A stretch of DNA of 16,144 bases from Candidatus Margulisbacteria bacterium GWF2_35_9 (lineage in GTDB: Bacteria > Margulisbacteria > Riflemargulisbacteria > GWF2-35-9), in the NCBI GenBank assembly GCA_001783275.1, contig MFRH01000066.1:10033-26176 (forward strand). Reading direction: 5' to 3'. Numbering within the stretch: position 1 is the first letter of the stretch; every line of letters starts with the position of its first letter. Position numbers and translations under genes: made by a program. Below the pieces are notes generated by a model. The model was not told the origin of the DNA. It did not search any database and saw only the letters and a list, made by a program, of their open reading frames with translations. This document shows positions 3-15,550 of the stretch, in pieces.

Positions 3-260
3 ATGTTTTATAAAAAAGTTTTTAATGTAGAGGCAAGTTATAAGCAACTCATCTTTGGGGCAATTTTTGTCACTACCTCTATGGCCATATTTAATATTGT
101 ATTTGGTTATTTTATTGTTTATATCGCAAGTAGTTTTAACAAAACATATGGGACAATATCAAGTATTATTCTTCTATTGTTATGGTTTCAGATAAATGCA
201 TTGTTTATATTGATGGGATCAAATATTGTGATGCTAAATCAGAATAAGCATCTAGCATGA
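3..260 (+). CDS. C-terminal fragment of a YihY/BrkB-family integral membrane protein. The 5' end lies outside the window.
   Basis: Open frame from the window edge. The hydrophobic TM-rich C-terminus (…ISSIILLLLWFQINALFILMGSNIV…) resembles the conserved YihY/BrkB (RNase BN-like) C-terminal block. The TGA stop overlaps the next gene's ATG (gcATGAaa at 257-260). Confidence 0.5.
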   Translation: MFYKKVFNVEASYKQLIFGAIFVTTSMAIFNIVFGYFIVYIASSFNKTYGTISSIILLLLWFQINALFILMGSNIVMLNQNKHLA

Positions 261-3200
261 AAAAAATTTTGCGATCTATGGCTCTTTGGTGTTTCATAAT
301 AATCACCTTTATGTTTTTGAGTATTATTGTTGTAATGCATACTGGTTTGCCTCAGGCCTATTTGAGTAAATTTATAACCAGCAAGATCAGTGACTCATTT
401 CCTGCAAAAATAACCATAGGCTCCATTGGTGGCAATTTTTTATGGAAATTAACGCTTAATGATATTAAGGTAGATACTGACACGTCTCCTAAACAAAGAA
501 TATTATCGGTATCATCAATAGGGATTAGATATAACCTTTTTAACCTTTTTTTTAACCGCAATTCATCAGAAAATATAATTAATATTAATATTTCAAGACC
601 GGTGGTTTTGATAAATCGCGATAAGGATGGGATTTTTAACTTTTCAAGCTTAATTCCTCCAAAGAGTCAGAATCCTTCAAGTGCTGAGTTTCCTTATAAA
701 TTGAATATACAAGTCAATAAGGGTGAGATTAATTACACGGATTATGCTACTCCCTTGCAGGTGCAAATAAAAGATACACAAGTCCAGGCAGAGTATGCTC
801 ATTCAATGTTTAAGCTTTTTGGAGTTAGGGGCGAGGTCGCTGGTAATTCATTTTTCGTTTCAGGTAACATATCCCTTAAGGAAAGTTCTCCCGGGATAGA
901 CATAGAATTGGCTGCTGCCAACTTTGATCTCGCTTCGATTGATTTGGTTTATCCGCCAGCAAAAGCATACAAATTAGAGGGGATGGCTAATCTCAATATT
1001 ACAGCCAAGTCTGTTCCAGGACAATCAATCCCAATAATTATAGGTCGCATAAGTATCCCCCAAGCCAGCGTTTATTCTTATTCGATTGCCAATATCTCTT
1101 CTGCTTTTGAATTCAATAAGCAAAAAATTAGCTTCTTAATAGATAAAGGTCTTATTGAAAAAGGGACATTTAAAACAGAAGGTACTGCGGATTTCAGTGG
1201 GCCACAACCCGCTTTTAATATTAATGGGTCATTAATGGGAGTCGACTTACAAAATCTAGTTGGGAATACTAAAATTATTACAGGAAAAGCCGATGCAGTT
1301 TTTCAGGTGAAAGGGTCTTTAAAGCAAAACTCAATCGTGTTAAATATTAAAGGAAAAAACGCTAATGCGTATGGTCGCTCGATTATAAAAGCAGACCTGA
1401 AACTCGACCTGAATAGGGGAAGCGTACTACTAAGGAAGGCCAGCATCTATACGGACAAAAAGGGGGAAATACACGCAACAGCTACGCTTTTCAAAGATAA
1501 AAATTTTGTCACCGATCTTTCGCTTAGATCATTGTCTTTTGATTCCACTAAAATATATATCAGTTCCATGGGCTCAGCCCAGGGATACATCGATAGCGAT
1601 ACTAGGTTTAGTGGCAGACTAAGTGAACAGTTTTTTTCCTCTCCTTTAGAGAATATTAAGGTGACAAGTTTATCTAATATTAAAGAAATAGACTTGTCCT
1701 ATGTAATCACAAGCAATTCTGAGGCTATAGCTCAATCTATAGATTTGCTTTCTTTTAATCTTTCCTGGGATGGCAAGTTACTAAGTGCTGATAAGATTAC
1801 TCTGCGTGAAAAAGAAACACGCCTGTTTGGAAGTGGATTTTTTGCCCTCGATAAAAGCTATCTTTTTAAGTTTAAGGGTGCCCCGATTATGCTCGAAAAT
1901 TTTGACTCTATTATCGCCGGGAAGGGAGTCGCTAGTGGTCCAATAGTCATTCAAGGAGAGGTTAGCGGCATATTGCCCTCTTGGAATTTAATGCTGGATT
2001 TTGATGTTAAATCACCGAGCTATAAAGGACTCGTTATAGATAAGATTAAAGGCTCCCTATTAAAAAAGCAAAGCATGCTCGAGATTGCTAATATGGAGAT
2101 TAGCAATAATAAAGATCTTTACATTATTGGTGGGAAAATAAATTTACCTAATTATCAAAAAGTTGACCTAAATCTTGAGATCAAAAAAGGGTCAGTTAAA
2201 AATATAATAACCTTAATTCGTGATGGGGTTAAGGTCGCCGGTATATATAAAAGTGAGCACGTTTTTGATTCGCTTGCAGGTTTAGACGAAAAAGCACTAA
2301 CTCAGATACTTAGTATTAATGCCTCTCATAACATTAACGAATCCATTCCTGTTTACAATGAAAATCAAAATACCATAACACATTTAAAATCATTTATAAC
2401 CGATACTACTACTACTGCTAATGAAAAAAAGAATGATAATAAACAGTCTTTGATTGATGATTTAACAGGGGATATTAGCGGTAAACTCAGTTTTAATAAT
2501 CTAACGAGTAATGTGTTGATGGGTGCCGATATTGGAATAAAAAACTTAAAGTTAGCCGAGTCTACTTTTGGCTCAATAGAGATTAAAGCAGAATCTACAC
2601 CTGGACCTATCGTGTCTTCAGTGGTCGTTAGAGACGGGTTAGTTGGGGGCACCTCTTTTGAGGAGGTTAGTGCCCAGTTGCTTTATGATCAAGATAAAAC
2701 TTTAATAATTGAAAGCGTCACGATGAAGTTGCATGGTTATAAAAATATCAAAATTATATCTGGTATAGTTCCTTTAGCAGAGCTATTTGGCCCTGTTGAA
2801 AACCCTAAAGCGCTCAGTCTCAATATTGAGATAGCAGGAAATCAAATCGCTATTGTTTCTTTATTTACAAATGCCATTGAATCAGCAACGAATGAAGGGG
2901 CCCTCATTTTTAACATAGGAGGCAGTGTCAAAAAGCCAATATTAAAAAAGGGATTAATTTCGATAATTAATGGTCGATTGAATTTGAAAAAGGGACTATT
3001 TCCAGTAGCCAGCTTTGTAATTCCTGAAGTCGATATTAGGGTCAAAGATAACGTCGCCTCAATTAATGCTTTTTCCCTGTCCTGGGAAGGCGATAAAAAA
3101 TTAAAAAAAACAAATCTGATTTCTGCGAGAGGAAGTGTTGGACTTAGATTGGCTCCATCCAAAGAGACTACAAGCTTTGTCATTAATACTGATATCAAAA

Positions 3201-4450
3201 TGGATGACACGGATCTCTATCTGAATATCCCTGATCTCTGCATCGGAATGTTAAAGATACGAGAGACCTCTTTTAAAGGGGATTATTTTTTCTCTCTTTC
3301 CAAATCAGATAAAGGGATTGAGGCCCCCTTAAAAAATGGACTTTTACTAAAATCAAAGCTTGAGCTTTATGAAACGGTGCTTTCTATTCCTAAAATAAGT
3401 AAGAAAAGCAAGTTATTTCCATCCATATTGATTGATATAGAGTTCACAATGGGTAAAAATGTGTTGCTTTCAGGAGGCGTTGTTCCTGAGGGAGTACTAA
3501 GCGGTTTTATAAATAACATCGATATCTATTTTGATAAGAGTCCCCACCAGTTAATGATTGGAGGAAGCCTGAATCGATATTCAATTGAAGGGAATCTGTT
3601 CTTCAGGTATGGAACAATTGTTCTTCTTAATAAAGATTTTACCCTTATGTCTCAATCAGAGCAGGAAAAATATTTTGGGCGGTCAAAAGATCTAGCCAAG
3701 CCTAATTATATAGAGTTTCGTAAAGAAGATACTGCCCCTCTTTTGCATTTAAGAGCGATGACTGAAACAGATGTTGCACAAACAGAAGTTGGGAGTAGTT
3801 TGGGGCAGCGAGAAGTTTTTATTTTTGTTATTGATGGGACTGTAACGGATGTCTCAAATATGTATATATATCAGTTCCATCGACAAGGTTCAACGTTTAC
3901 TCCTGATGAAGGTAATCCGATTGTGATTGGTCGAATGAGTGTCGTTCAACTCGAAAAACTAAGTACTTATTTGTGGCCTGAGTTACTAAGTGTCAGTTTT
4001 TATCAGAATTTGGCCAATGAAGGGTTACAAGGGGAGTCCGCTGGAATTTTTATAAGGCAATTATCAGAACGAGCGGTGAACAATATAGTTTATAGACAGC
4101 TGCGTCCAGTTGAGAGAGAAATAGCTGATAGGATAGGTGTTGATGATATTCATTTTAATTATAATTTAGGAAATATTATAAGTGATGGCAGTTCAGATAA
4201 TAATAATGGAAAACAGGACCTTGTCGGAGTGGATATCAGTTCCAGATTATTTATTGACCGACTTTATGTCACTGTGCGTACGAATTTGGATCGACAGGAG
4301 AATGACAAAACTCTCAGTGTCGGTATTTCACAATACGAACTCAAGCTATCTTTGTTAGAGTGGCTTTCGTTGATTTATCATAACAAGACAATTTTTAGTG
4401 ATAATAGAAGTGAAGGAGTATTTGCTCTTGAAGCAGAGTACAATTTTTAA
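257..4450 (+). CDS. tamB: TamB/AsmA-like translocation and assembly module protein (1397 aa, N-terminal signal-anchor, DUF490-like C-terminus).
   Basis: Single long ORF. N-terminal TM anchor (ALWCFIIITFMFLSIIVVMHTG). Very large, predicted beta-rich periplasmic body. C-terminal amphipathic block ending …GVFALEAEYNF, typical of the TamB DUF490 C-terminus. Immediately followed by an Omp85 gene. ATGA overlap with the upstream ORF. Confidence 0.78.
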   Translation: MKKILRSMALWCFIIITFMFLSIIVVMHTGLPQAYLSKFITSKISDSFPAKITIGSIGGNFLWKLTLNDIKVDTDTSPKQRILSVSSIGIRYNLFNLFFNRNSSENIININISRPVVLINRDKDGIFNFSSLIPPKSQNPSSAEFPYKLNIQVNKGEINYTDYATPLQVQIKDTQVQAEYAHSMFKLFGVRGEVAGNSFFVSGNISLKESSPGIDIELAAANFDLASIDLVYPPAKAYKLEGMANLNITAKSVPGQSIPIIIGRISIPQASVYSYSIANISSAFEFNKQKISFLIDKGLIEKGTFKTEGTADFSGPQPAFNINGSLMGVDLQNLVGNTKIITGKADAVFQVKGSLKQNSIVLNIKGKNANAYGRSIIKADLKLDLNRGSVLLRKASIYTDKKGEIHATATLFKDKNFVTDLSLRSLSFDSTKIYISSMGSAQGYIDSDTRFSGRLSEQFFSSPLENIKVTSLSNIKEIDLSYVITSNSEAIAQSIDLLSFNLSWDGKLLSADKITLREKETRLFGSGFFALDKSYLFKFKGAPIMLENFDSIIAGKGVASGPIVIQGEVSGILPSWNLMLDFDVKSPSYKGLVIDKIKGSLLKKQSMLEIANMEISNNKDLYIIGGKINLPNYQKVDLNLEIKKGSVKNIITLIRDGVKVAGIYKSEHVFDSLAGLDEKALTQILSINASHNINESIPVYNENQNTITHLKSFITDTTTTANEKKNDNKQSLIDDLTGDISGKLSFNNLTSNVLMGADIGIKNLKLAESTFGSIEIKAESTPGPIVSSVVVRDGLVGGTSFEEVSAQLLYDQDKTLIIESVTMKLHGYKNIKIISGIVPLAELFGPVENPKALSLNIEIAGNQIAIVSLFTNAIESATNEGALIFNIGGSVKKPILKKGLISIINGRLNLKKGLFPVASFVIPEVDIRVKDNVASINAFSLSWEGDKKLKKTNLISARGSVGLRLAPSKETTSFVINTDIKMDDTDLYLNIPDLCIGMLKIRETSFKGDYFFSLSKSDKGIEAPLKNGLLLKSKLELYETVLSIPKISKKSKLFPSILIDIEFTMGKNVLLSGGVVPEGVLSGFINNIDIYFDKSPHQLMIGGSLNRYSIEGNLFFRYGTIVLLNKDFTLMSQSEQEKYFGRSKDLAKPNYIEFRKEDTAPLLHLRAMTETDVAQTEVGSSLGQREVFIFVIDGTVTDVSNMYIYQFHRQGSTFTPDEGNPIVIGRMSVVQLEKLSTYLWPELLSVSFYQNLANEGLQGESAGIFIRQLSERAVNNIVYRQLRPVEREIADRIGVDDIHFNYNLGNIISDGSSDNNNGKQDLVGVDISSRLFIDRLYVTVRTNLDRQENDKTLSVGISQYELKLSLLEWLSLIYHNKTIFSDNRSEGVFALEAEYNF

Positions 4451-6125
4451 ATTATTTCTACTGAGTGCCCTATTCTTTCCGGCGATATGCGTTGCAGGCT
4501 TGTCACCACTTACCGGAATATATGATAAGGTAATCGCACAAGTTAGGCTTGAAGGTAATCATTATATTACCTCAGCTTCTATCTTTGCCTCAGTTAACTT
4601 TGAAGCTTCTGCTAACACTCTCGTGAAGGTAGAACAAGTTAGAAATGATATAGAAAATATCTATTCATTAGGTTTTTTTAAGAGTGTAAACGTGGCGCTA
4701 AAATCTGAGAAGCAAGGGCAAGTATTGATCTATCAGTTAGAAGAAAATCCCTTGATTAAAAAAATTGTTATTAATGGGATATCAGCAGAAGACGATAATT
4801 TTTTTTTAGAGGCGATGAATACTCGTCCTTTAACTGTATTGTCCTATAAAGTTATTGATGAAGATATTCAGAGAATTAATAAAAAGCTTGTTGATTATGG
4901 CTATTCTCTTAATAGAGTTAGTAACGTTGAATTTTTAACTACTAGTAACATCGTGTTGCTGAGCATCAAAGAAACTAAAATTAATAACGTATTGATAAAT
5001 GGTAACCAACGATTTGCTGATAATCTCATTTCTCGGGAAATGACTGCTAGGAAAGGCAGGGTTTTTAACTTAAATGAAGTGAGAAAAGACAGAGATATCA
5101 TACTTGGTTTAGGATATTTTTCATCAGTTTCTGCTCCTCAACTAGTGCCTGTAAAAGACACGGATGATATTGATATCGTCTTTTCGGTTGTCGAAAGAAA
5201 AGTGAATTCTATTTCCCTTGCTCTTGAAGAAGGGCGCAAGTCTATTAACCTGACTTTTCGTAATCAGCTTGTTAATTATTTGAAGTGGGGAGAGTCTTTT
5301 TCTGCAAGAGCACAGTACGGAGAAGAGCAACTGTATAGCCTGCATTTTTATCTTCCGTGGACATTTAATCAGAGAGTTTCTCTTGGATTGAATAAATGGC
5401 TTCAAATTAGCAGAGAAAGTGATAAAAATGGCATAGATTACGATGTATTACGCAATGGGGCAGATATAATTTGGGGCTTGCCGCTGGCTGATGAAATTAA
5501 AATGTATGTAACTTATCGAAGTGAAAATGTGCGTGAAAATGTAGCTGTTCCGTCAATAATCTATACAAAAAATGATATAGAACTTGCTATCTCTTATGAG
5601 AATCGAGACAGCTTAGTCAAACCGACTAATGGCAGCTATGGCTATGCTCAGGTCAGTAAAGGCGGGAACTACGGTTTGTTTGACCTTGGCGGAATCAATT
5701 ACGTTCGTATGAGCGCGAGCTATATGCAATTTTATAAAGTAAGAGATAAGCAGGTATTCGCCTTTCGTAATAGCTATGGATCATTCAGTCCTGACCAAAA
5801 TAACATTAAATTGCTGGAGTTAGATCTATTTACTATCGGAGGAGCATCTACAATAAGAGGTTATACTGACTCTACATCACGCAGAGGGTTGCATATGTTG
5901 ACGGGTAATTATGAATATAGAATATATTTAATGGAGGCTCTGTCACTGGTGTTTTTCTATGATATGGGTATCGTTTATGAACAGGAAATATCTTTATCAG
6001 ACTTCATTGCGGGGCGTGGTTTTGGGTTTAGGTTTTTCACACCTTTTGGACCTATCAGGCTAGATTTAGCGTGGTCTAATAGTAGTGATTTTGTCTTGCA
6101 TTTTGGTTTATCAGAAATGTTCTAA
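4398..6125 (+). CDS. tamA: Omp85-family outer-membrane protein (TamA/BamA-like; POTRA repeats plus C-terminal 16-strand barrel).
   Basis: 575 aa. Signal-peptide-like N-terminus (KLFLLSALFFPAICVAG). Repeated POTRA-like segments. C-terminal 'bacterial surface antigen' barrel with terminal motif …RFFTPFGPIRLDLAWS…HFGLSEMF ending in Phe. Size and adjacency to tamB favour TamA over the essential BamA. The ATG at 4398 overlaps the tamB 3' end by 53 nt, so the true start may be slightly downstream. Confidence 0.78.
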   Translation: MIIEVKEYLLLKQSTIFKLFLLSALFFPAICVAGLSPLTGIYDKVIAQVRLEGNHYITSASIFASVNFEASANTLVKVEQVRNDIENIYSLGFFKSVNVALKSEKQGQVLIYQLEENPLIKKIVINGISAEDDNFFLEAMNTRPLTVLSYKVIDEDIQRINKKLVDYGYSLNRVSNVEFLTTSNIVLLSIKETKINNVLINGNQRFADNLISREMTARKGRVFNLNEVRKDRDIILGLGYFSSVSAPQLVPVKDTDDIDIVFSVVERKVNSISLALEEGRKSINLTFRNQLVNYLKWGESFSARAQYGEEQLYSLHFYLPWTFNQRVSLGLNKWLQISRESDKNGIDYDVLRNGADIIWGLPLADEIKMYVTYRSENVRENVAVPSIIYTKNDIELAISYENRDSLVKPTNGSYGYAQVSKGGNYGLFDLGGINYVRMSASYMQFYKVRDKQVFAFRNSYGSFSPDQNNIKLLELDLFTIGGASTIRGYTDSTSRRGLHMLTGNYEYRIYLMEALSLVFFYDMGIVYEQEISLSDFIAGRGFGFRFFTPFGPIRLDLAWSNSSDFVLHFGLSEMF

Positions 6126-6369
6126 CTTTACTAAAAAGTATAGATTCAGGATTATCCATTCGAATTCTATAACCATCGAGTATATCAATAGCCTTGGCGA
6201 GAGCGAGAACACTCGGTTTCCCGCTAAGGAGTATACTGATTAATAACAGGAATACGGAACTAATGATACTAAGATATATTCCCTGCTTAATTGATGAGAG
6301 TGATTCAATTTAAAAAGCAAGGTCAACTCATTTCAAATATAGAATAAAATATACTAAAGGAGGATCGTG

Positions 6370-6846
6370 ATGGAAATAATCAAGTCTGATCATAATTTTG
6401 CAGCCGTGTGGATTGACCATAAGAAAGCAGTTATCTCTTTTCTTGATGATAAGGGGCATCGTGAGCAAGTTTTAACTATTGAGTCAAACGTAAGCGCTCA
6501 TATAAATTTCAAAACTGGACGGGGATATAGTAGCAACCAACATCTGCAAATGGTTAAACCAGCAATTAGTCAGGAGCGCAAACATCAAAGCCAGTTGAAG
6601 CGTTACTTCCAAGAAATAATACAAACGCTTAAAGGCATTGGTAGCTTCATCGTTATTGGTCCTGGGGAGGCCAAAATAGAATTTCAAAAAGAAATTCACA
6701 AAAACAAAGAACTTTTTCCACTTCTAAAAGAAGTTCTGCCCCAAGATAACATAACTGAAACCCAACTTGTTGCCTATGCCAAAAAATTCCATGTGCCAGT
6801 TGGATCACCTTTTACTGTGTCTAAGCCTAAACTGATTAGAAGGTAG
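6370..6846 (+). CDS. Hypothetical 158-aa protein, possibly Host_attach / bacterial eRF1-like (baeRF) fold.
   Basis: Strong SD AAAGGAGGA (6356-6364) lies 6 nt before ATG 6370 (GTG 6367 is the alternative). Sequence …AAVWIDHKKAVISFLDD…GIGSFIVIGPGEAKIEFQKEI… is reminiscent of the small Host_attach family. Ends TAG. Its 3' end overlaps the HDAC-like remnant on the opposite strand. Confidence 0.55.
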   Translation: MEIIKSDHNFAAVWIDHKKAVISFLDDKGHREQVLTIESNVSAHINFKTGRGYSSNQHLQMVKPAISQERKHQSQLKRYFQEIIQTLKGIGSFIVIGPGEAKIEFQKEIHKNKELFPLLKEVLPQDNITETQLVAYAKKFHVPVGSPFTVSKPKLIRR

Positions 6847-7396
6847 AGGGGTTTAAATTTATTGATTTTGTGAAGAGCTTTGATAAGGGTTTCTTTGTAT
6901 TCTTCATAAGTAATGTGCTCTGGCATAGGATAATTAACATTAAAGCCTTGGCCTATCCCCTCGCCTATTTCCTCTGTAAAACCAGAAAAATAAGGATAAG
7001 CAACGCGGGGATTTCCGTGGATGGACAAACAGAGAAGGTTTGGGTTTTAACTTTTATACAGAGATTGGTTTTTTCCAGTTCAGCCATGATGGAAGCAACT
7101 CTTACAGGAGATTCGACATAACCCCGCTCCTTAACGTGATGAATATAATGCTTCTCATTAAATATCAAGGCAATTTTTTGCCTGTCTTTTATCAAAAAGT
7201 CTCGGGATGGGATAGGTTTTTTAATATATATTTTTTCTCTGCATTTTACTGGGTCATCCTTAAAGGAATTTAGAACCATGCGCATATATTTGGGTGAACA
7301 CAAATCGGAGTATTTGCGTCTAAGGATAGCTTTAACAATTTTTACGGTTGATTCCAAGTGAAGGTTATTTTTATCAGCTTCCAAACTATCAAACAT
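6774..7396 (-). pseudogene. Histone-deacetylase/acetylpolyamine-amidohydrolase (HDAC-fold) gene remnant. Two overlapping reading frames, with the catalytic core deleted.
   Basis: The upstream ORF (7396..6965) contains the N-terminal HDAC block …IALIFNEKHYIHHVKERGYVESPVRVASIMAELEKT (the HPE-x-P-x-R region). The downstream ORF (7028..6774), in another frame, carries YPYFSGFTEEIGEGIGQGFNVNYPMPEHITYEEY (FPGTG…G-x-G…N-x-PL motif) and …ISLGLDTVKGDPTGTWNF (G-x-D…DPLG block). About 150 aa between these blocks are missing, including the HH and D-x-H zinc/catalytic residues. The 3' end is overrun by the convergent gene at 6370-6846. Confidence 0.6.
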
Positions 7397-7402
7397 CAGC
7401 TA

Positions 7403-7912
7403 AGGAGGATTATCATCCCCTTCATTTAAGGGTGTTTCATATTTGGTATTCACGATAGAGGTCACTCCAAAACGTTCATAAAACTTGAGGCGACTGATAT
7501 TTTCCTTGAGGATATTGGGGGTCCTTACAAAGAGTAGAATCATCTGGCAGACATTCAAAAAACAAGCCGATACTTTTTAGCTTTTTCGCTTCTGAACGTG
7601 CTTTTTCATATAGAATGCTACCTATCTGCCGGAAAAACCTTTTTTGGTGGCGATGTAATCCAGAAAGCTGAAATTCAAGTCTGGAGCATGAAACAAAAGC
7701 GCAAAGGCATCCACGCTTCCTTTATAATTATCAGCTACCAGCAAAATAGACCTGAATTTGTATTTTAAGGGATTATGAAGTTGTTCAGTTAATTGTTGTA
7801 TTTTTTCTTCTTTAACACTAGGGAATTGAGCCCTGATAATATCCTGAACCTGAATAATTACTTTTTGATTAGCAGGATACAGAGCATCATGAATACGTCT
7901 TATTCTTAACAT
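7403..7912 (-). pseudogene. GNAT-family acetyltransferase paralogue interrupted by two in-frame stop codons (TAG at 7624..7622, TAA at 7579..7577).
   Basis: ORF 7912..7625 (96 aa) ends …LDYIATKKGFSGR*. The same frame continues VAFYMKKHVQKRKS*KVSACFLNVCQMILLFVRTPNILKENISRLKFYERFGVTSI…, ending at TAG 7402..7400. The tail carries the GNAT C-terminal 'FYE+FGF'-like motif. The total is about 170 codons, a normal GNAT size. It starts directly after the upstream GNAT's TAA (TAAATG). TAA and TAG are bona fide stops elsewhere in the window. Confidence 0.55.
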
Positions 7913-8413
7913 TTACACGACTTTTACAAAGATGACTTTGTCGTCATTGGGCCCGTAGAAATCTTTTAACTGGGCTTCCACTATATAGTCGCTTTTTTGA
8001 TAGAATTTTCGGGTGGGTATGTATAGGTCTTTAGATGATGTTTCCACATAGATACGACCTCCCCCAATTTCCTTGATAATCATCTCGGTTCGTTTCATAA
8101 GCTCTTTGCCTATTCCGCTCTTTTGATATGTATTCTCTACAGCAATCCAGTATAGGTCGTAACTTGAAGCAGTACCCATAATCGGCCCATAACACACATA
8201 TCCAATAACTTCGCCTTCATTTTCAGCAAAAAGGAAATAGTAGCCACTTTCTTTACCTTTCTGGAGACGTTCATCAATAAGTTCAACCGCAATTTCCTGT
8301 TCTTCCTCATTAAAGAAATCCGTAGATTTAATTATCCTACGAATAGCTTCTGAATCAGTACCCAACGTTTCCTGCCGAAAGTTTAAAGAGATATTCGTTA
8401 GTTTATTTTTCAT
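7913..8413 (-). CDS. GNAT-family N-acetyltransferase (166 aa).
   Basis: Motif A …YQKSGIGKELMKRTEMIIKEIGGGRIYVETS… and C-terminal …KFYQKSDYIVEAQ… . ATG 8413-8411 overlaps the TGA of the upstream ATP-grasp gene (ATGA). Confidence 0.85.
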   Translation of the reverse strand: MKNKLTNISLNFRQETLGTDSEAIRRIIKSTDFFNEEEQEIAVELIDERLQKGKESGYYFLFAENEGEVIGYVCYGPIMGTASSYDLYWIAVENTYQKSGIGKELMKRTEMIIKEIGGGRIYVETSSKDLYIPTRKFYQKSDYIVEAQLKDFYGPNDDKVIFVKVV

Positions 8414-9402
8414 GTAGGTATCCTTATAGCTTTTATTATAATTTCAATCATTTCTTTGTAAGAAAGACCGCTTTCTTTTGCTGCTGCGACAAATCCACTA
8501 TCTTCAGCTATTCCTGGATTTGCATTAACTTCAAGTATCCATGGACGGTTGTGTTTATCCACCCGGAAATCTACTCTAGCATATGCGTTAAGACCAAAGA
8601 GTTTCCAGCAATTTAATGAAATCTGTTTAAGTTCATCCAACAACTTTTTATCACTGTCTTTGAAGGTAAATGTCCGACTGGTATTTTTATATTCAAAGGT
8701 GGTTTCCTCCCACTTAGCGGCATAGCTTACTATTTTTGCTTTGTCTTTTGGAAAATTGAAAAACTGCATTTCGGCAGGTGGTAAAACAGTTGGATTAGAA
8801 TCGGGACCAATAATGGAAATATTAAATTCCCGACCATCTATATATTCTTCAGCAAAAAAATGGTCATGCAGTCTTTCGTTCCTGTCCAGAATGAAATCGT
8901 TTAAGGCTTGTCCGCTATTAAAAGTTTTTACTGAAGAATCATCAATATTTATAGAGGCATCCTCTACTATAGATTTTACAATTACACGCTTGTTTTCTAA
9001 GGGAACAGCAGATGAAGAAGTCTTAGGATCATACCATTCTGCTGTTGGCAGGATTGCCTGTCTTAACACCGTTTTGCTTAATACCTTGTCTGTTGTTAAA
9101 TAAATGGCCTCCGCAGAACATCCACTGTATGGAATTGCGTAAAAATCTAGTAGGGCTGGGACAAGATGTAAAAAACGTCCCTCCATTTCAACCAGATTAA
9201 ATACAAACTCAGCGGTTTTTAGCTCAGGAAGAATGGACGTCAAATTTTCAGGAGATACTTGTTTTATAAGTGGATCATAGCCCAAGGCTATAATGGCCTC
9301 GTTAACATTCTTTATCTGAACAAGCGTATCCAACTGATCCTCTGCATTAGGATCAGTTATCTGCTGATGCAAAAGCACCACATTTTTTAAACGTGTAGTC
9401 AT
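8410..9402 (-). CDS. D-alanine-D-alanine-ligase-like ATP-grasp amide ligase (about 330 aa).
   Basis: C-terminal …YARVDFRVDKHNRPWILEVNANPGIAEDSGF… matches the Ddl ATP-grasp Mg/ATP site. The N-terminal Ddl-like Rossmann domain starts at MTTRLKNVVLLHQQ. I place the start at ATG 9402-9400, which forms an ATGA overlap with the upstream stop. The longest-ORF start at 9486 would instead give an 88-nt overlap. Confidence 0.82.
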   Translation of the reverse strand: MTTRLKNVVLLHQQITDPNAEDQLDTLVQIKNVNEAIIALGYDPLIKQVSPENLTSILPELKTAEFVFNLVEMEGRFLHLVPALLDFYAIPYSGCSAEAIYLTTDKVLSKTVLRQAILPTAEWYDPKTSSSAVPLENKRVIVKSIVEDASINIDDSSVKTFNSGQALNDFILDRNERLHDHFFAEEYIDGREFNISIIGPDSNPTVLPPAEMQFFNFPKDKAKIVSYAAKWEETTFEYKNTSRTFTFKDSDKKLLDELKQISLNCWKLFGLNAYARVDFRVDKHNRPWILEVNANPGIAEDSGFVAAAKESGLSYKEMIEIIIKAIRIPT

Positions 9403-11729
9403 TGCATGACCGGAGTAAGTCTTTTTACAGCTGAATCCATAATCATTTGGATCAGTTTTGTATAAGGGATTCCCATATGTCTGCAAAGAATTGGCAGGTC
9501 CGAATCATTCGGGTTTAGTCCAGCAAGTGTATTAACCTCAATAAAGTTAGGAACTCCATTTTTATCCAGACGCATATCAATTCTCCCACCATCTCTACAT
9601 CCCAAAGCTTTCCATGCTTTGATAGCGATATCTGCACTTTTTTGGGCTTCAATATCTGTTGCTATTGTATAGTGAATCATTTCCTCATAATTTTGCTTAT
9701 TAGCGTAAGAATATATCTCTTGTTCCGCATTTTTTGAAATGAATACTTCTAAGACTCCAAGAGCTTTCGCTTCAGATCCTGTACCAACTATTCCAATAGT
9801 GAATTCTCTTCCTGGCAGAAATTCTTCAACAAGAACTGCTTGTTGAAATTTAACCAACAAGTCTTTGACCGTTTGATGCAAAGTTTCTTTATCCTTTATT
9901 TTTGAAGTGGCAGTAACTCCTTTACTGCTACCTTCCGCCACTGGTTTAGCGAATAACGGGAATTCCAGATTAATGTTTTCTATATCCTCTACATTTTCCA
10001 CTACATGAAAAGCAGCGGTAGGAATTCCTTTATCTTTTAACACATGCTTTACAAGGCCTTTATGCTGGGAAAGTGAATGAATGGTTGAAGATGAAAAGGT
10101 AGAAGGAATGCCATACGCATCTAATAGGCTGGGCACTTGAGACTCCCGGGATATTCCATGTAGACCTTCGGCAATATTAAACACCAAATCCCATTTTTTC
10201 CCATTGTGCAATAGGTGAACCAAATTATGAATATTACCGATTCGATCTGTTTCGTAGCCTAATTCCTTCAAACTATTTTCAATGGCTTCAATGGTTTCTA
10301 TTTTATCAAATTCAGCGATATCCTCATTGCTGTATCCCATATTTTTATAATCTTCTTTCAAGTCATAACAGATGCCAACTTTGAGTTTTTTGCTTTTCTG
10401 CTCAGAAACAGGGTCATAGTAAGAATATATCTTGTCCTGATAGTTTTTCAACATAACCTGATTGCCATTCCGTCCAATATAATACTCTGGTAATATCGGG
10501 ATTTTTCCTCCTCCACCAGGAGCGTCTATTACATAATGAGGAATAGCATAACCAGAGGTGTGGCCTCTTAATCCCTTGATGATTTCCAGTCCTTTTTCTA
10601 CACTTGTTCGGAAGTGAGAAGATCCTTCAATAAGATCGCACTGATACAAATAGTAGGGGCGGACTCGAATCTTGAGTAGTTCATGGAACAGCTTCTTCAT
10701 AATGGGGACACTGTCATTTATACCTTTTAGTAAAACCGTCTGACTACCCAAGGGAATGCCAGCATCGGCAAGCCGATTGCAGGCCTCTCTTGTTTCTTCT
10801 GTTATTTCATCTGGATGAGTGAAATGCAGACTTAAATACAGTGGCTTGTACTTCTGCAGAATCTTTAGCAATTTTTTGGTTATTCTTTGTGGCAAGACAG
10901 CTGGTATTTTGGAGCCAATCCGAATAATTTCAAGATGTTTTATTTCGCTTAATCCTGAAAGCAACCAGTCTAGTTGCTTATCTGAAAGCGTCAAAGGATC
11001 TCCACCGGAAATAATAACATCACGTATTTCGGTATGGGCCTGAATATAATCAATAGAATCCTGCCAATCAGCAAAACCGGTTTTTTGTTTTTTAGTTACA
11101 TGACCTACTACCCGAGAGCGGGTGCAGTATCGGCAATTGACAGAACAAAAACTGGTTGCCAGAAAAAGGGCCCGGTCTGGGTATCGATGTATAATACCAT
11201 TTACGGGTCGAGTAGTGTCTTCTCCTAAGGGATCAAAGGATTCTTCCTGTGTAATTTTCAATTCATCTATAACTGGAATAACCGAACGGCGTATAGATTG
11301 TTTTCCATTTCTTTCATCCAGAAGGCTTGCATAATAGGGAGTTATTGAGATCGGAAGCTTCCCAAGTTTGCCTCTTTTTTCAAGTATCTCCCGTTCAGTA
11401 TTGCTTAGTGTAACAAATGTTTCCAGTTGTTTTAATGTTCGAATCCTGTTACGCAACTGCCACTTCCAGTTACCCCAGTTAATTTTTGTCGATCCAGGAA
11501 AGTGTTTATGATAAAACTTTGCGGATTTATTAGAAATTGGGAAACCATGGTTTTTGTTTGGGATAACAGAAGGAAGGGACATAAGATTTTTTTCATAAAT
11601 CGGCAATCTCAGACCGTGTTTTGGTAAAATAGCAATTATAGTGCCAAGCGGAGGCTCTCCTTCATCGGAATTTTCCTCAGAAATGGAACCTATATCAACC
11701 AGATTTAGGTTATTATTTTTTGTTATCAT
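9399..11729 (-). CDS. kamA: Fusion protein: lysine 2,3-aminomutase (radical-SAM KamA/AblA, residues about 70-440) fused to a C-terminal D-Ala-D-Ala-ligase-like ATP-grasp domain (about 450-776).
   Basis: N-terminal part is block-by-block colinear with Clostridium subterminale LAM: WGNWKWQLRNRI, ITPYYASLLD, HRYPDRALFLATSFCSVNCRYCTRSR (CxxxCxxC), IISGGDPLTLSD, RIGSKIPAVLPQRIT, RVRPYYLYQCDL, GLRGHTSGYAIPHYVIDAPGGGGK. C-terminal part is colinear with Ddl: WDLVFNIAEGLHG, PLFAKPVAEGSSKGV, VLVEEFLPGREFTIGIVG, GCRDGGRIDMRLDKNGVPNFIEVNTLAGL. Ends TGA at 9401-9399. Confidence 0.9.
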   Translation of the reverse strand: MITKNNNLNLVDIGSISEENSDEGEPPLGTIIAILPKHGLRLPIYEKNLMSLPSVIPNKNHGFPISNKSAKFYHKHFPGSTKINWGNWKWQLRNRIRTLKQLETFVTLSNTEREILEKRGKLGKLPISITPYYASLLDERNGKQSIRRSVIPVIDELKITQEESFDPLGEDTTRPVNGIIHRYPDRALFLATSFCSVNCRYCTRSRVVGHVTKKQKTGFADWQDSIDYIQAHTEIRDVIISGGDPLTLSDKQLDWLLSGLSEIKHLEIIRIGSKIPAVLPQRITKKLLKILQKYKPLYLSLHFTHPDEITEETREACNRLADAGIPLGSQTVLLKGINDSVPIMKKLFHELLKIRVRPYYLYQCDLIEGSSHFRTSVEKGLEIIKGLRGHTSGYAIPHYVIDAPGGGGKIPILPEYYIGRNGNQVMLKNYQDKIYSYYDPVSEQKSKKLKVGICYDLKEDYKNMGYSNEDIAEFDKIETIEAIENSLKELGYETDRIGNIHNLVHLLHNGKKWDLVFNIAEGLHGISRESQVPSLLDAYGIPSTFSSSTIHSLSQHKGLVKHVLKDKGIPTAAFHVVENVEDIENINLEFPLFAKPVAEGSSKGVTATSKIKDKETLHQTVKDLLVKFQQAVLVEEFLPGREFTIGIVGTGSEAKALGVLEVFISKNAEQEIYSYANKQNYEEMIHYTIATDIEAQKSADIAIKAWKALGCRDGGRIDMRLDKNGVPNFIEVNTLAGLNPNDSDLPILCRHMGIPYTKLIQMIMDSAVKRLTPVMQ

Positions 11730-12796: not shown

Positions 12797-12991
12797 ATAA
12801 AAACCCTCCTTAATATTTTATTAACTATTTCCAAGCATAACCCATGAACTTCATAGAAGCAAACTAATAAGCTTTTTCAATAAATCAGGAATATTTCTTC
12901 CCTAAATCGTAATTAAGGGATATCATTCTCTTTACTTATAACCGTCTTTGGAAAAATATAAGTATAAAATATAAAATAAATGAGGTATAAC
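12797..12991. promoter_or_regulatory. Divergent intergenic region. Presumed promoters for the SPFH gene (minus) and the zinc-ribbon gene (plus).
   Basis: 195-nt AT-rich spacer between divergently oriented starts. Several -10-like hexamers (TATAAA/TAAAAT around 12962-12976). No confident -35 assignment. Confidence 0.3.
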
Positions 12992-13360
12992 ATGGGATTT
13001 TTCGATAAGGGAAAAAAAGATAATAATGAATTTCGATCAGAAGGAACAAAACGTAGATCCTCAGGTGGCGGTAGAGACTCATATGAAGAAAAGGAGTTAA
13101 CAACTGTCACATGCGATACCTGTGGCAAAAGTTGCACGGTACCCTTTAGACCAACAGCTGGCAAACCAGTTTATTGTAATGATTGTTTTAAGAAAAATGA
13201 TTCGGGTTCACGAAGTGACAGATCCGCCTATCCAAAACGTCGTACAGGTTCAGATTCTCGTGGTAGAAGTTCAGACAGTGGTTCTTCAAGTCGTGAATTA
13301 GCTCAGATTAATGCCAAGTTAGATCGTATTCTAGAGATGCTAGACCAAGACGCAGAATAA
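12992..13360 (+). CDS. Small C4 zinc-ribbon protein with a basic RS/SR-rich tail and a C-terminal coiled segment.
   Basis: CDTCGKSCTVPFRPTAGKPVYCNDCF (CxxC-x17-CxxC). This matches a widespread small zinc-ribbon family (C-x2-C-G-K…VPF-P…+PVYC-x2-C). GAGG lies 6 nt upstream of ATG 12992 (longest-ORF ATG is at 12980). Followed by a strong intrinsic terminator. Confidence 0.7.
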   Translation: MGFFDKGKKDNNEFRSEGTKRRSSGGGRDSYEEKELTTVTCDTCGKSCTVPFRPTAGKPVYCNDCFKKNDSGSRSDRSAYPKRRTGSDSRGRSSDSGSSSRELAQINAKLDRILEMLDQDAE

Positions 13361-13364
13361 ACTC

Positions 13365-13399
13365 TAAAAAAAGGCCATCCTTTGAATGGCCTTTTTTTT
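13365..13399. terminator. Rho-independent terminator, potentially bidirectional.
   Basis: A8 run (13365-13372), GGCCAT (13373-13378) / ATGGCC (13386-13391) stem with 7-nt loop CCTTTGA, then T8 (13392-13399). Sits immediately 3' of the zinc-ribbon gene. Confidence 0.75.
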
Positions 13400-13607
13400 C
13401 TCTGATAAAATACTTGATCGGCTTATTTTTTAACAAAATCATCATAAAACTTTTTTCTAAACATATATACCAGAATATTTCGATGCAAGTTTTTCTTTCT
13501 AAATGCCGATATAAGAAGTGTTACTAGGAAAAATGTCTTTACTTTGCTAACTTATTGCATCTAATTTGACGGATAATCTTTAAGAACCATTCATTTTAGG
13601 AGTCTTT

Positions 13608-14105
13608 ATGGCAGAAACATCGGGCATTTCTTTCAACGCTGGCATCAATTCTGGTTCGTTAGGTATCAATTCCAAACAAGACGTAGATGCTTTATCTGCA
13701 TTAACTGAGGAATATAGCGCAGGCAGTTTTTCTATAAATGGCACGTCGTTTATAAACAGTTTTCAAAATGAACTCGACGATTTACAAGAAGTGTCGCAGG
13801 TCTCATTATCCTCTATGACATTAGGTGGATCTGTTGATAATATCAAAGATGCAGTAAGTAGTATCGCCAATAAATTAGGCGTTTCCTTTAATGATGCAAT
13901 CAACATGCTCAAAACAACTGGCGGTAAAAATATTGATACAGATCCATTAGATAAAAAGAATGCCCTTCACAATTCAACTCCTTTTGATGAGATGAAAAAC
14001 ATACAAGCACTCTATTCAAGATTTGAAGACGAAGATGAAAAAAAAGTTGATAGTACTATTATTTCAGCGATAAACCCGACCTATCAATCAACGATGGTTT
14101 TCTAA
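13608..14105 (+). CDS. Hypothetical acidic Ser/Asn-rich protein (165 aa) with no signal peptide and no recognised domain.
   Basis: AGGAG (13598-13602) lies 5 nt upstream of ATG 13608. The ORF is uninterrupted. Composition is low-complexity and acidic (many D/E/S/N). I recognise no homolog. Confidence 0.5.
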   Translation: MAETSGISFNAGINSGSLGINSKQDVDALSALTEEYSAGSFSINGTSFINSFQNELDDLQEVSQVSLSSMTLGGSVDNIKDAVSSIANKLGVSFNDAINMLKTTGGKNIDTDPLDKKNALHNSTPFDEMKNIQALYSRFEDEDEKKVDSTIISAINPTYQSTMVF

Positions 14106-14260
14106 TAGCCATTAGTTATTCCCCTCTATTAATTTTATTAAGCCCTATAGTAGAATACTAATATAATAATGGGGAATTAAACTGGAAATAGAAAATCCCA
14201 CTCAAGGAAAAACATAAATTTTATTGAAGGACGTACTGATTTGAATTATAAAGTATTTAT

Positions 14261-15550
14261 ATGAGGCTCTTAAACTTTCAGGTTAATTACTATAAATGCA
14301 TCAGTGATTCCGGTATTATCAACATTAACGATATTGCGTGTTTCATTGGCAACAACAATAGTGGAAAAACAGCTTTATTTGAAGCTCTTTACAAATTGAA
14401 CCCCGCTTTTTCGAAAAACAAGTTTTTTGAGTCTGATGATTTTCCAAAAGACAAGATTGAATACCAAAACTCTAAAACAAGAGTAATTACTTGTACCTTT
14501 AAACTAACTGATGCAGAATTAATATTTATTAATAAAAAATTTGGAGACCATTGCATAAATTCCGATATTATTACTGTATCAAGAGACTATGCAAATAATC
14601 TCCATTGGGATTTTGAAATTAACGAAGAAAGTTATGTTAAACATCTTATTGATAAAAGAAATTTAACAAAATTATTTGAGAAACATTTAAGTAAGATTAA
14701 TTCAGTGGAATCCTGCTATAGTGTTGCGAAGGAATTGCCTCCTCTATCAACCAGCCTCGTTTCGTTTATTACCCAACTTGAATTATTGAAAATTCGTTCA
14801 ATGAAGGAAGAAATTATTGAAGGATACTTTCAACACTGGATACCCAAATTCCTATATATTTCTGAAGTTCATAAGCTACCGGGTTATTTTTCATTAAAAC
14901 AAATAACCAAAGCCCTCTCTTCATCAGATGATGTTAAAGAAGCTGCAAAAACAGCTTTAGCTTTCTTAAAACTACTGGAAGTAGATATTAACAGCTTATT
15001 AACCGAACCAGATAATAATAAACTACTTGAAACAATGAATAACTTATCAAGTAATCTGTCATCACACCTTTCTTCCATTTTACAAATTTTTGAACATCTA
15101 CAAATTGATATTGATATTCAATCCCTAGTTGCCCAAAATGTTCGTATTGATTCCACAATTTATATCAACATAACCAATAAAGAAACTAAGATCACTTTAC
15201 CTATTGGAAAACATGGAAAATCACTAGTTTATTTTTTATCGTTCCTTTGCTCCTTATCAATAATAAAAGATAAAACCGAACCATATATAATACTTATTGA
15301 TACACCCTCAGATCATTTAAGCATCGATGCTCAATCCGAATTTTGTAAATATATTCATGATGTATTAACACAAAAACACCAAATTCTATATACAACACAT
15401 TCTCCATTTATGATTAATACGAAAGCAAAAGACAATCTTTATTCTGTCTTTATCAAACCAAACTTCGGGACTGTCGTATCTCAAGACGTAAACTCAGATT
15501 CACTGACAAAGAAGATTTCAGATATCGCAGACAAATTCTATTCGAAATAA
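14261..15550 (+). CDS. OLD/AAA_15-type ABC ATPase (429 aa) with a degenerate Walker B. Putative orphan defence/abortive-infection ATPase.
   Basis: N-terminus MRLLNFQVNYYKCI…ININDIACFIGNNNSGKTALFEAL matches the OLD-family start (MkIkslkIkNF…) and has the P-loop GxNxSGKT. It has a long helical insert. The C-terminal …PYIILIDTPSDHLSIDAQ…QILYTTHSPFMI gives Walker B hhhhD plus the TTHSP H-loop. The canonical DEPE…LHP is DTPS…LSI here. No TOPRIM or nuclease domain is present, and no partner gene lies downstream. Confidence 0.72.
   Translation: MRLLNFQVNYYKCISDSGIININDIACFIGNNNSGKTALFEALYKLNPAFSKNKFFESDDFPKDKIEYQNSKTRVITCTFKLTDAELIFINKKFGDHCINSDIITVSRDYANNLHWDFEINEESYVKHLIDKRNLTKLFEKHLSKINSVESCYSVAKELPPLSTSLVSFITQLELLKIRSMKEEIIEGYFQHWIPKFLYISEVHKLPGYFSLKQITKALSSSDDVKEAAKTALAFLKLLEVDINSLLTEPDNNKLLETMNNLSSNLSSHLSSILQIFEHLQIDIDIQSLVAQNVRIDSTIYINITNKETKITLPIGKHGKSLVYFLSFLCSLSIIKDKTEPYIILIDTPSDHLSIDAQSEFCKYIHDVLTQKHQILYTTHSPFMINTKAKDNLYSVFIKPNFGTVVSQDVNSDSLTKKISDIADKFYSK

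Follow-up and report, generated by a model that had tools for sequence, protein, structure and literature searches.

The minus-strand region at 7912-6774 of the window (the whole 16,144-nucleotide stretch of Candidatus Margulisbacteria bacterium GWF2_35_9 DNA that was analysed) is very probably a pseudogene, the disabled remnant of a fusion gene of about 580 aa that stands last in a conserved five-gene cluster, and the two in-frame stops near its start would have come from compensating frameshifts. The reading frame opens with an ATG at 7912-7910, directly after the TAA (7915-7913) of the upstream GNAT gene, and runs for 170 codons to a TAG at 7402-7400, with only a TAG at 7624-7622 and a TAA at 7579-7577 as internal stops. 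Translation confirmed what an initial annotation of this DNA had described, namely the two in-frame stops, the frame of about 170 codons and the TAAATG junction with the upstream GNAT. Over the region, the ATG frame holds three stops and the other two frames 14 and 15, while composition-matched shuffles contained a mean of 11.9 stops (P for three or fewer = 0.002). With far fewer stops than expected by chance, the ATG frame is therefore a real coding remnant. Its first 96 codons are 100% identical to a deposited protein (P0001, 'hypothetical protein A2Y40_08385'), and family-like sequence is found on both flanks of the two stops. No Pfam family matched the 170-codon ATG frame when the stops were entered as X, and the GNAT assignment therefore comes from homologues and a structure model.

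Judged from the alignment to homologues, the two stops appear to be the out-of-frame read-out of a stretch flanked by two frameshifts, one of net -1 and one of +1, and not nonsense substitutions. Beginning with the ATG, the first pseudogene segment (7912-7626) keeps the original frame; its ~96 residues form the start of the GNAT-fold N-domain and correspond to family HMM 1-96. Within 7645-7625, family homology then passes from the ATG to the -1 frame, placing in this interval a first frameshift of net -1 (one base lost, or four). The interval holds an A6 run (7645-7640), a T5 run (7637-7633) and GGCAGATAG, and six alternative repairs fall within 8 bits of one another (385-393 bits). The frameshifted stretch of 36 codons (7625-7518) is correct only in the -1 frame (IGSILYEKARSEAKKLKSIGLFFECLPDDSTLCKDP); in terms of the GNAT fold, it corresponds to helix 3, strand 5 and the region of the acetyl-CoA-binding motif A. 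Using hmmsearch, the -1 frame of approximately 7649-7512 matched family HMM positions 90-135 with 41.9 bits (E = 7e-15), and its translation, RQIGSILYEKARSEAKKLKSIGLFFECLPDDSTLCKDP, agrees with the family consensus rGiGgalyervreealelktvGlffeclpddpklsrdp. Both internal stops are out-of-frame artefacts, the true frame reading ATA GGT (Ile-Gly) at the TAG (7624-7622) and CTA AAA (Leu-Lys) at the TAA (7579-7577). Around the stops, the ATG frame (SGR-stop-VAFYMKKHVQKRKS-stop-KVSACFLNVCQMILLFV, roughly 35 columns) had no identity to the homologues shown in the alignment, which agree closely among themselves over these columns.

The second frameshift is a C5 run (GACCCCCAAT, 7521-7517) with one extra C (+1), at which reading returns to the ATG frame. 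The -1 frame reads ...CKDP up to the CCC at 7520-7518, and the ATG frame resumes at the AAT at 7516-7514, giving NILKENISRLKFYERFG, which matches the family. Repair of both shifts increased the family HMM score from 321 bits to 385-393 bits. The net -1 and +1 shifts cancel, so that the flanks keep their register and the frame appears undisturbed around the stretch. In the course of decay, a net single base would have dropped out of 7645-7625 and the C5 run at 7521-7517 would have acquired one C, possibly as small indels from replication slippage at short homopolymer runs; the 36 codons between the shifts would then be read one base out of register, in a wrong frame that happens to hold a TAG and a TAA. 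The initial annotation had proposed two nonsense mutations flanked by GNAT-like sequence with no indel. Its description of the flanks stands, but the absence of an indel does not, as about 38 codons including both stops are unlike the family while the -1 frame matches, and the two nonsense mutations give way to an out-of-frame reading of sequence that the HMM recognises (positions 90-135, at the 41.9 bits given above).

The third pseudogene segment (7516-7403) is again in the original frame and contains the end of the GNAT-fold core (…RLKFYERFGVTSIVNTKYETPLNEGDDNPP). It is followed by a genuine nonsense codon, the TAG at 7402-7400, which replaces the Tyr of the DNPP-Y-L motif. A Tyr is found at this position in four homologues (P0002, P0003, P0005 and L077), which read GDDNPPYLV(Y/F)DDLG where the window reads GDDNPP-stop-LMFDSLEA with the frame unchanged across the site; further on, the window continues as GDDNPP-TAG-LMFDSLEADK…HHVKERGYVESPVRV compared to GDDNPPYLVYDDLGQD…HHVEERGYVESPVRI in P0003. 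Since the homologues continue through this point, the TAG at 7402-7400 is a nonsense codon at a conserved Tyr and not the natural end of the gene. Homology extends past it to approximately 7064 and then, in another frame, from approximately 7045 to 6777. A GNAT ending at 7403, as originally assumed, is therefore too short a reading of what in the family is a fusion of about 580 aa.

The fourth segment (7399-7064, original frame, family HMM 172-284) encodes the linker and the first ~20 deacetylase residues (…HHVKERGYVESPVRVASIMAELEKTNL) and is annotated in GenBank as a separate hypothetical protein of 143 aa (A2Y40_08380). At 7064-7045 lies the junction of an out-of-frame internal deletion of about 460 bp, with family HMM positions ~285-438 missing, and beyond it a remnant of the deacetylase C-terminus (7044-6774) in the -1 frame (LLCLSIHGNPRVAYPYFSGF…LGLDTVKGDPTGTWNFLA; HMM 429-532) that ends in a TAG at 6776-6774. 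The hmmsearch domains accordingly alternate between frames (325 bits for HMM 1-294, 41.9 bits for 90-135 and 122.6 bits for 429-532), and tblastn agrees with them, mapping homologue residues 1-295 to 7912-7031 in one frame and residues 429/430-532 to 7094-6774 in another. Homologue residues ~296-428 were found in no frame by tblastn or hmmsearch, and HMM positions 533-579, the last ~47 codons, in no frame of 6000-7950.

The deleted part corresponds in the intact relative L077 to the motifs PPGHHA (residue 391) and DIDYHHGNG (427), and the lost 3' end to QEGGY (553). Following HDAC8 and the acetylpolyamine amidohydrolases (APAH), we take PPGHHA, DIDYHHGNG and EGGY to be the catalytic histidines, two of the three zinc ligands and the catalytic tyrosine. 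Among catalytic and zinc-binding residues, the window copy kept only the aspartate of GLD(T)xKGDP. A complete PF00850 domain is likewise absent, the window retaining only HMM positions ~267-284 and ~440-532. The ~460 bp deletion would have removed the catalytic core of the deacetylase, and the loss of catalytic residues suggests that no functional product is made. Overall, the lesions number at least five and are of three kinds, comprising two frameshifts, a nonsense codon, the ~460 bp deletion and the loss of the 3' end. Homology to the intact family runs across and beyond the disabling sites, and the lesions, compared to intact relatives, block a full-length product. Intact family homology, several lesion types, indels at or near homopolymers and a larger deletion are all shared with the ordinary decay of bacterial pseudogenes, but it is mildly unusual that compensating small indels mimic an open frame with two nonsense codons.

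From sequence and modelling, the parent gene is best described as encoding about 580 aa, in which a linker joins a GNAT-fold N-domain to an acetylpolyamine-amidohydrolase-like zinc deacetylase domain. Homologues with 39-55% identity align across all 170 codons and then run on into the deacetylase domain. Word-indexed protein searches were insensitive (6, 4 and 7 matches). A genome-contig scan identified at least 495 related loci in species-representative genomes; the 80 of these closest to a Dehalococcoidales query included no close relative of the window copy. Intact relatives taken from genome contigs (n = 26) encode 578-592 aa in a single frame. In L077, the deacetylase domain was matched by Pfam PF00850 (Hist_deacetyl) at residues 267-572 with 257.9 bits, while its GNAT matches remained below the Pfam cut-offs (PF13508, 22.9 bits versus 27; PF00583, 20.3 bits versus 20.7). 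Among solved structures, the C-domain of L077 is closest to acetylpolyamine amidohydrolases (E ~7e-68, over the whole domain length).

The GNAT fold consists of a mixed beta-sheet and four helices in the order beta1-alpha1-alpha2-beta2-4-alpha3-beta5-alpha4-beta6, and its acetyl-CoA-binding motif A reads Q/R-x-x-G-x-G/A. The N-domain of the family is predicted to adopt this fold, a prediction made for the homologue P0003 rather than for the window copy. For the P0003 N-domain, the AF2 model gave block-mean pLDDT values mostly of 78-95 across residues 1-120, with a single block at 63, and every match listed by Foldseek against the PDB was a GNAT (probability 1.00, TM 0.73-0.80 normalised to target), the best being GCN5, PCAF and AAC(6'). 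The family HMM has the motif-A-like consensus R-G-I-G-G-A. In the window copy, the motif A pattern is not preserved, the sequence being R-Q-I-G-S-I, which is present in the -1 frame only and ends in Ile; the ATG frame has G-R-stop at the same place. The family thus resembles the GNAT superfamily in the predicted fold of the P0003 N-domain and in the motif-A-like consensus, but differs from it in that the N-domain is very divergent and in the family is always fused to or beside a deacetylase; it may transfer acetyl groups or only bind a ligand. With the APAH proteins (PDB 9gkz, 6phr and 3q9b; HDAC/arginase fold, PF00850), it shares the matches of the L077 C-domain, and the window keeps N- and C-terminal pieces of that domain; stand-alone APAHs, however, are without the N-terminal GNAT-fold domain (~170 aa) and linker of this family. 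A further difference concerns the window copy itself, which is without the His-His pair, the Asp/His zinc ligands and the catalytic Tyr, and for this reason cannot be an active APAH member.

The pseudogene is the fifth and last gene of a minus-strand cluster encoding an aminomutase, two ATP-grasp ligases, a GNAT and the GNAT/deacetylase, of which the other four are intact. The first gene in the cluster (9399-11729, minus strand) encodes a 776-aa fusion of a KamA-family radical-SAM 2,3-aminomutase (CSVNCRYC motif) with an ATP-grasp ligase. It is followed on the same strand by a second, intact, D-Ala-D-Ala-ligase-like ATP-grasp gene (8410-9486 as the longest ORF, ~8410-9402 and 330 aa as called) and an intact small GNAT gene (7913-8413) of 166 aa with the motif A QKSGIG, matched by Pfam PF00583 with E = 2.9e-13. 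The cluster is widely distributed, at least 495 loci having been detected across species-representative genomes. Of 15 related loci inspected, from MAGs that include Dehalococcoidales, deltaproteobacterial and Chromatiaceae ones, 13 show the five modules in synteny. The initial annotation had regarded the damaged gene as a possible redundant paralogue of the small GNAT upstream. BLASTP detected no similarity between the small upstream GNAT and the N-domain of the pseudogene, and one homologue of 762 aa (P0028) fuses the GNAT-fold domain, the deacetylase and a small GNAT in one protein, its C-terminal domain being 44% identical to the small GNAT of the window. From these comparisons, the small GNAT and the GNAT/deacetylase are distinct, co-conserved and co-operating modules, and the idea of redundancy was dropped.

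The best NCBIfam match of the aminomutase was the AblA model, at 490 bits and so below the cut-off of 525 bits. A KamA-family aminomutase and GNAT genes are what the cluster shares with AblA/AblB, the lysine 2,3-aminomutase and beta-lysine acetyltransferase of the N-epsilon-acetyl-beta-lysine osmolyte pathway, but its two D-Ala-D-Ala-ligase-like ATP-grasp enzymes and the GNAT/APAH fusion are, to our knowledge, no part of the ablAB system. In the library searched, no relevant paper dealt with the five-gene cluster or the GNAT-APAH fusion. We speculate from the gene content that the cluster would make an N-acetylated beta-amino-acid peptide or amide, with the fusion enzyme handling the acetyl group.

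We considered whether the gene might be intact in the organism, with the indels or stops being contig errors. The window comes from a MAG, both small shifts are at or near short homopolymer runs, and other public assemblies hold family copies with error-like frameshifts, such as L002 and several truncated representatives. However, the original scaffold, a MEGAHIT contig, a JGI assembly and a Logan assembly, products of different pipelines whose read sets may be shared, are 100% identical across 6774-7912, and two of the four differ from the window elsewhere at three places (L085 at 5094 and 5731; L086 by a 5-bp indel at 5082-5086). On the strength of these four identical sequences, an assembler artefact appears to be excluded. 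Under an explanation by error, each of the lesions, which number at least five, are independent and fall into three kinds, would also have to be wrong, a base substitution and a deletion of 460 bp among them, and A6 and C5 are short homopolymers for indel errors in short-read data. Sequencing error could account for the two small indels at most; if reads were systematically wrong at both short homopolymer sites, this would leave the TAG and the 460-bp deletion unexplained, and the gene would not be rescued thereby. Overall, we consider an artefact improbable. The narrower reading, that a stand-alone GNAT of ~170 codons, a redundant paralogue, was very recently inactivated by two nonsense substitutions without an indel, would fit a frame that is open save for two stops and has family-like flanks. 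It is contradicted by the dissimilarity of the ATG frame to the family between these flanks, where the -1 frame matches with E = 7e-15, by homologues that run through the supposed natural stop into the deacetylase domain, and by the absence of BLASTP similarity to the upstream GNAT, and we give it very little credence.

An alternative explanation is that the frame is subject to programmed recoding, through a -1 shift at the A-rich run (CC AAA AAA GG) and a +1 shift at the C run (CCC C), or through readthrough, yielding a 170-aa GNAT-fold protein that ends at the TAG at 7402-7400. Both shift sites are indeed on slippery-looking homopolymers, and the out-of-frame stretch is well conserved and free of stops in the -1 frame, but recent mutation accounts equally well for this conservation. 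Taken in the zero frame, the A run breaks the X XXY YYZ register, its codons being ACC AAA AAA GGT with A AAA AAG out of register, and the CCC C site, though present, is not diagnostic of +1 shifting. No stable RNA structure was predicted downstream of either site (z = +0.55 and +0.36 compared to shuffles), no Rfam frameshift element was matched, and all intact relatives examined are encoded in one frame without a conserved shift. In the P0003 model, moreover, the residue equivalent to the TAG precedes a strand (172-176) and helices (186-215) modelled with moderate confidence (pLDDT ~76-78), and the remainder of the gene is visibly destroyed. Programmed recoding is thus highly unlikely, in line with the initial annotation, which had rated programmed readthrough as much less likely than inactivation. 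Equally slight is the chance that the GNAT-fold module of ~170 aa may still be made by a double slip, -1 at the A run (7645-7640) and then +1 at the C run (7521-7517), as a de novo rescue of one domain from an otherwise destroyed fusion gene; each test specific to programmed frameshifting came out negative. A genetic code in which TAG and/or TAA serve as sense codons has nothing to commend it beyond the presence of the stops, and is hardly conceivable given that 11 neighbouring ORFs end in TAA (7), TAG (2) and TGA (2), that several neighbouring genes align to homologues or domain models along almost their entire length, and that the stops vanish once the frame is corrected.

Returning to the decay of a fusion gene, we compared the surviving sequence with that of intact family members. 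After repair, it keeps 21 of 22 invariant family columns, 49 of 54 columns conserved at 90% or more and 72 of 78 conserved at 80% or more; intact members scored in leave-one-out fashion span a range that includes these values. Identity to the best relatives is 55%, similar to that of the intact neighbouring genes (KamA domain 57-60%, first ATP-grasp domain 51-52%, small GNAT 53-55%, second ATP-grasp 35-46%). As the surviving sequence is as conserved as intact members, the decay is likely to be recent on the scale of family divergence. The very recent inactivation suggested at first holds in this relative sense, given the conserved columns that are kept, but the damage goes well beyond two point mutations. 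Using the 143-aa fragment as query, no close orthologue was found in a library of 1.84 billion proteins, and the nearest non-self relative was 58% identical. At 58% identity, this relative is too distant for dN/dS, for dating, for reconstructing the ancestral sequence or for placing the first shift exactly. Orthologues ending naturally at the first stop, which would have spoken for a shorter gene, were not seen; the relatives found, of which the closest is the 58% identical one, read straight through.

On balance, we regard the region as a pseudogene of the ordinary kind that probably decayed recently and that derives from a widespread, uncharacterised family of fusion enzymes. As one decaying gene in a metagenome-assembled Margulisbacteria genome, the finding matters little in itself. 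It does illustrate a trap, since compensating frameshifts can mimic two in-frame stops without frame decay, and the other frames need to be checked in such cases; GenBank, for its part, splits this one pseudogene into two hypothetical proteins (A2Y40_08385 and A2Y40_08380). The lineage appears to have kept the biosynthetic half of the cluster and to have lost the enzyme for acetyl transfer and deacetylation. It is in this respect a natural knock-out of the fifth cluster gene with the other four intact, which could help to dissect the contribution of the fusion enzyme once the product of the cluster is known.

The pseudogene, a remnant of a fusion gene encoding a GNAT-fold/acetylpolyamine-amidohydrolase-like protein, was split by GenBank into two separate hypothetical proteins on the minus strand, A2Y40_08385 (96 aa; 7403-7912) and A2Y40_08380 (143 aa; 6968-7396), each of which is now a singleton cluster in protein databases. 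On the opposite strand, the last ~23 codons of the convergent gene A2Y40_08375 (6367-6846, plus strand; 159 aa) overlap the pseudogene's 3' remnant. Six non-self homologues of A2Y40_08375, 126-162 aa long, share 35-38% identity with it. One of them carries the name 'stalled ribosome rescue protein Dom34', and the pelota/Dom34-like signal of A2Y40_08375 itself is weak (NCBIfam E = 0.005).

Several public copies of the fusion family (the locus L002 and the database proteins P0011, P0012, P0016, P0020, P0022, P0034 and P0068) have apparently frameshifted or scrambled C-termini. In L002 (ENA ERZ21869602, contig ctg92109l, 6862-12235), the genes adjoining the family copy are also split, and the damage looks like an indel error of a long-read or low-coverage assembly. 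Database frameshifts in this family are often artefacts. The four assemblies of the window's own population differ only at 5082-5086, 5094 and 5731, all of which lie inside the Omp85/BamA-like gene (4398-6125). One assembly (L085) carries two SNPs, at 5094 and 5731, while the JGI assembly (L086) carries a 5-bp indel at 5082-5086, and gene calling there splits the Omp85 gene into two ORFs of 326 and 250 aa. These differences could be due to strain heterogeneity or to assembly error.

The same POTRA/Omp85 gene follows, and overlaps, a gene for a 1397-aa protein with a sub-threshold Pfam DUF748 match (46.3 bits; cut-off 50), and the pair (257-6125, plus strand) resembles a TamB/TamA-type outer-membrane translocation module. 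At the other end of the window (12980-15550, plus strand), two small ORFs, one of them with a zinc-finger domain match, lie ahead of the gene for a 429-aa AAA_15/AAA_21 (AbiEii-like) ATPase, and together they may form a defence-type module.

The pseudogene belongs to a minus-strand cluster of five modules (6774-11729), namely a KamA-type 2,3-aminomutase, two D-Ala-D-Ala-ligase-like ATP-grasp modules, a small GNAT and the GNAT-fold/acetylpolyamine-amidohydrolase fusion, for which our literature search found no paper. Related loci include L003, L005, L009, L024, L071 and L079. Gene order and fusion state vary between loci: a KamA-ATP-grasp fusion is present in the window, L024 and L028, and the family representative P0028 is a triple GNAT-fold/deacetylase/GNAT fusion. 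Synteny of the five modules was kept in 13 of the 15 related loci checked, which take in Dehalococcoidales, deltaproteobacterial and Chromatiaceae MAGs, and the GNAT-fold/acetylpolyamine-amidohydrolase fusion gene occurs at no fewer than 495 loci in species-representative genomes.
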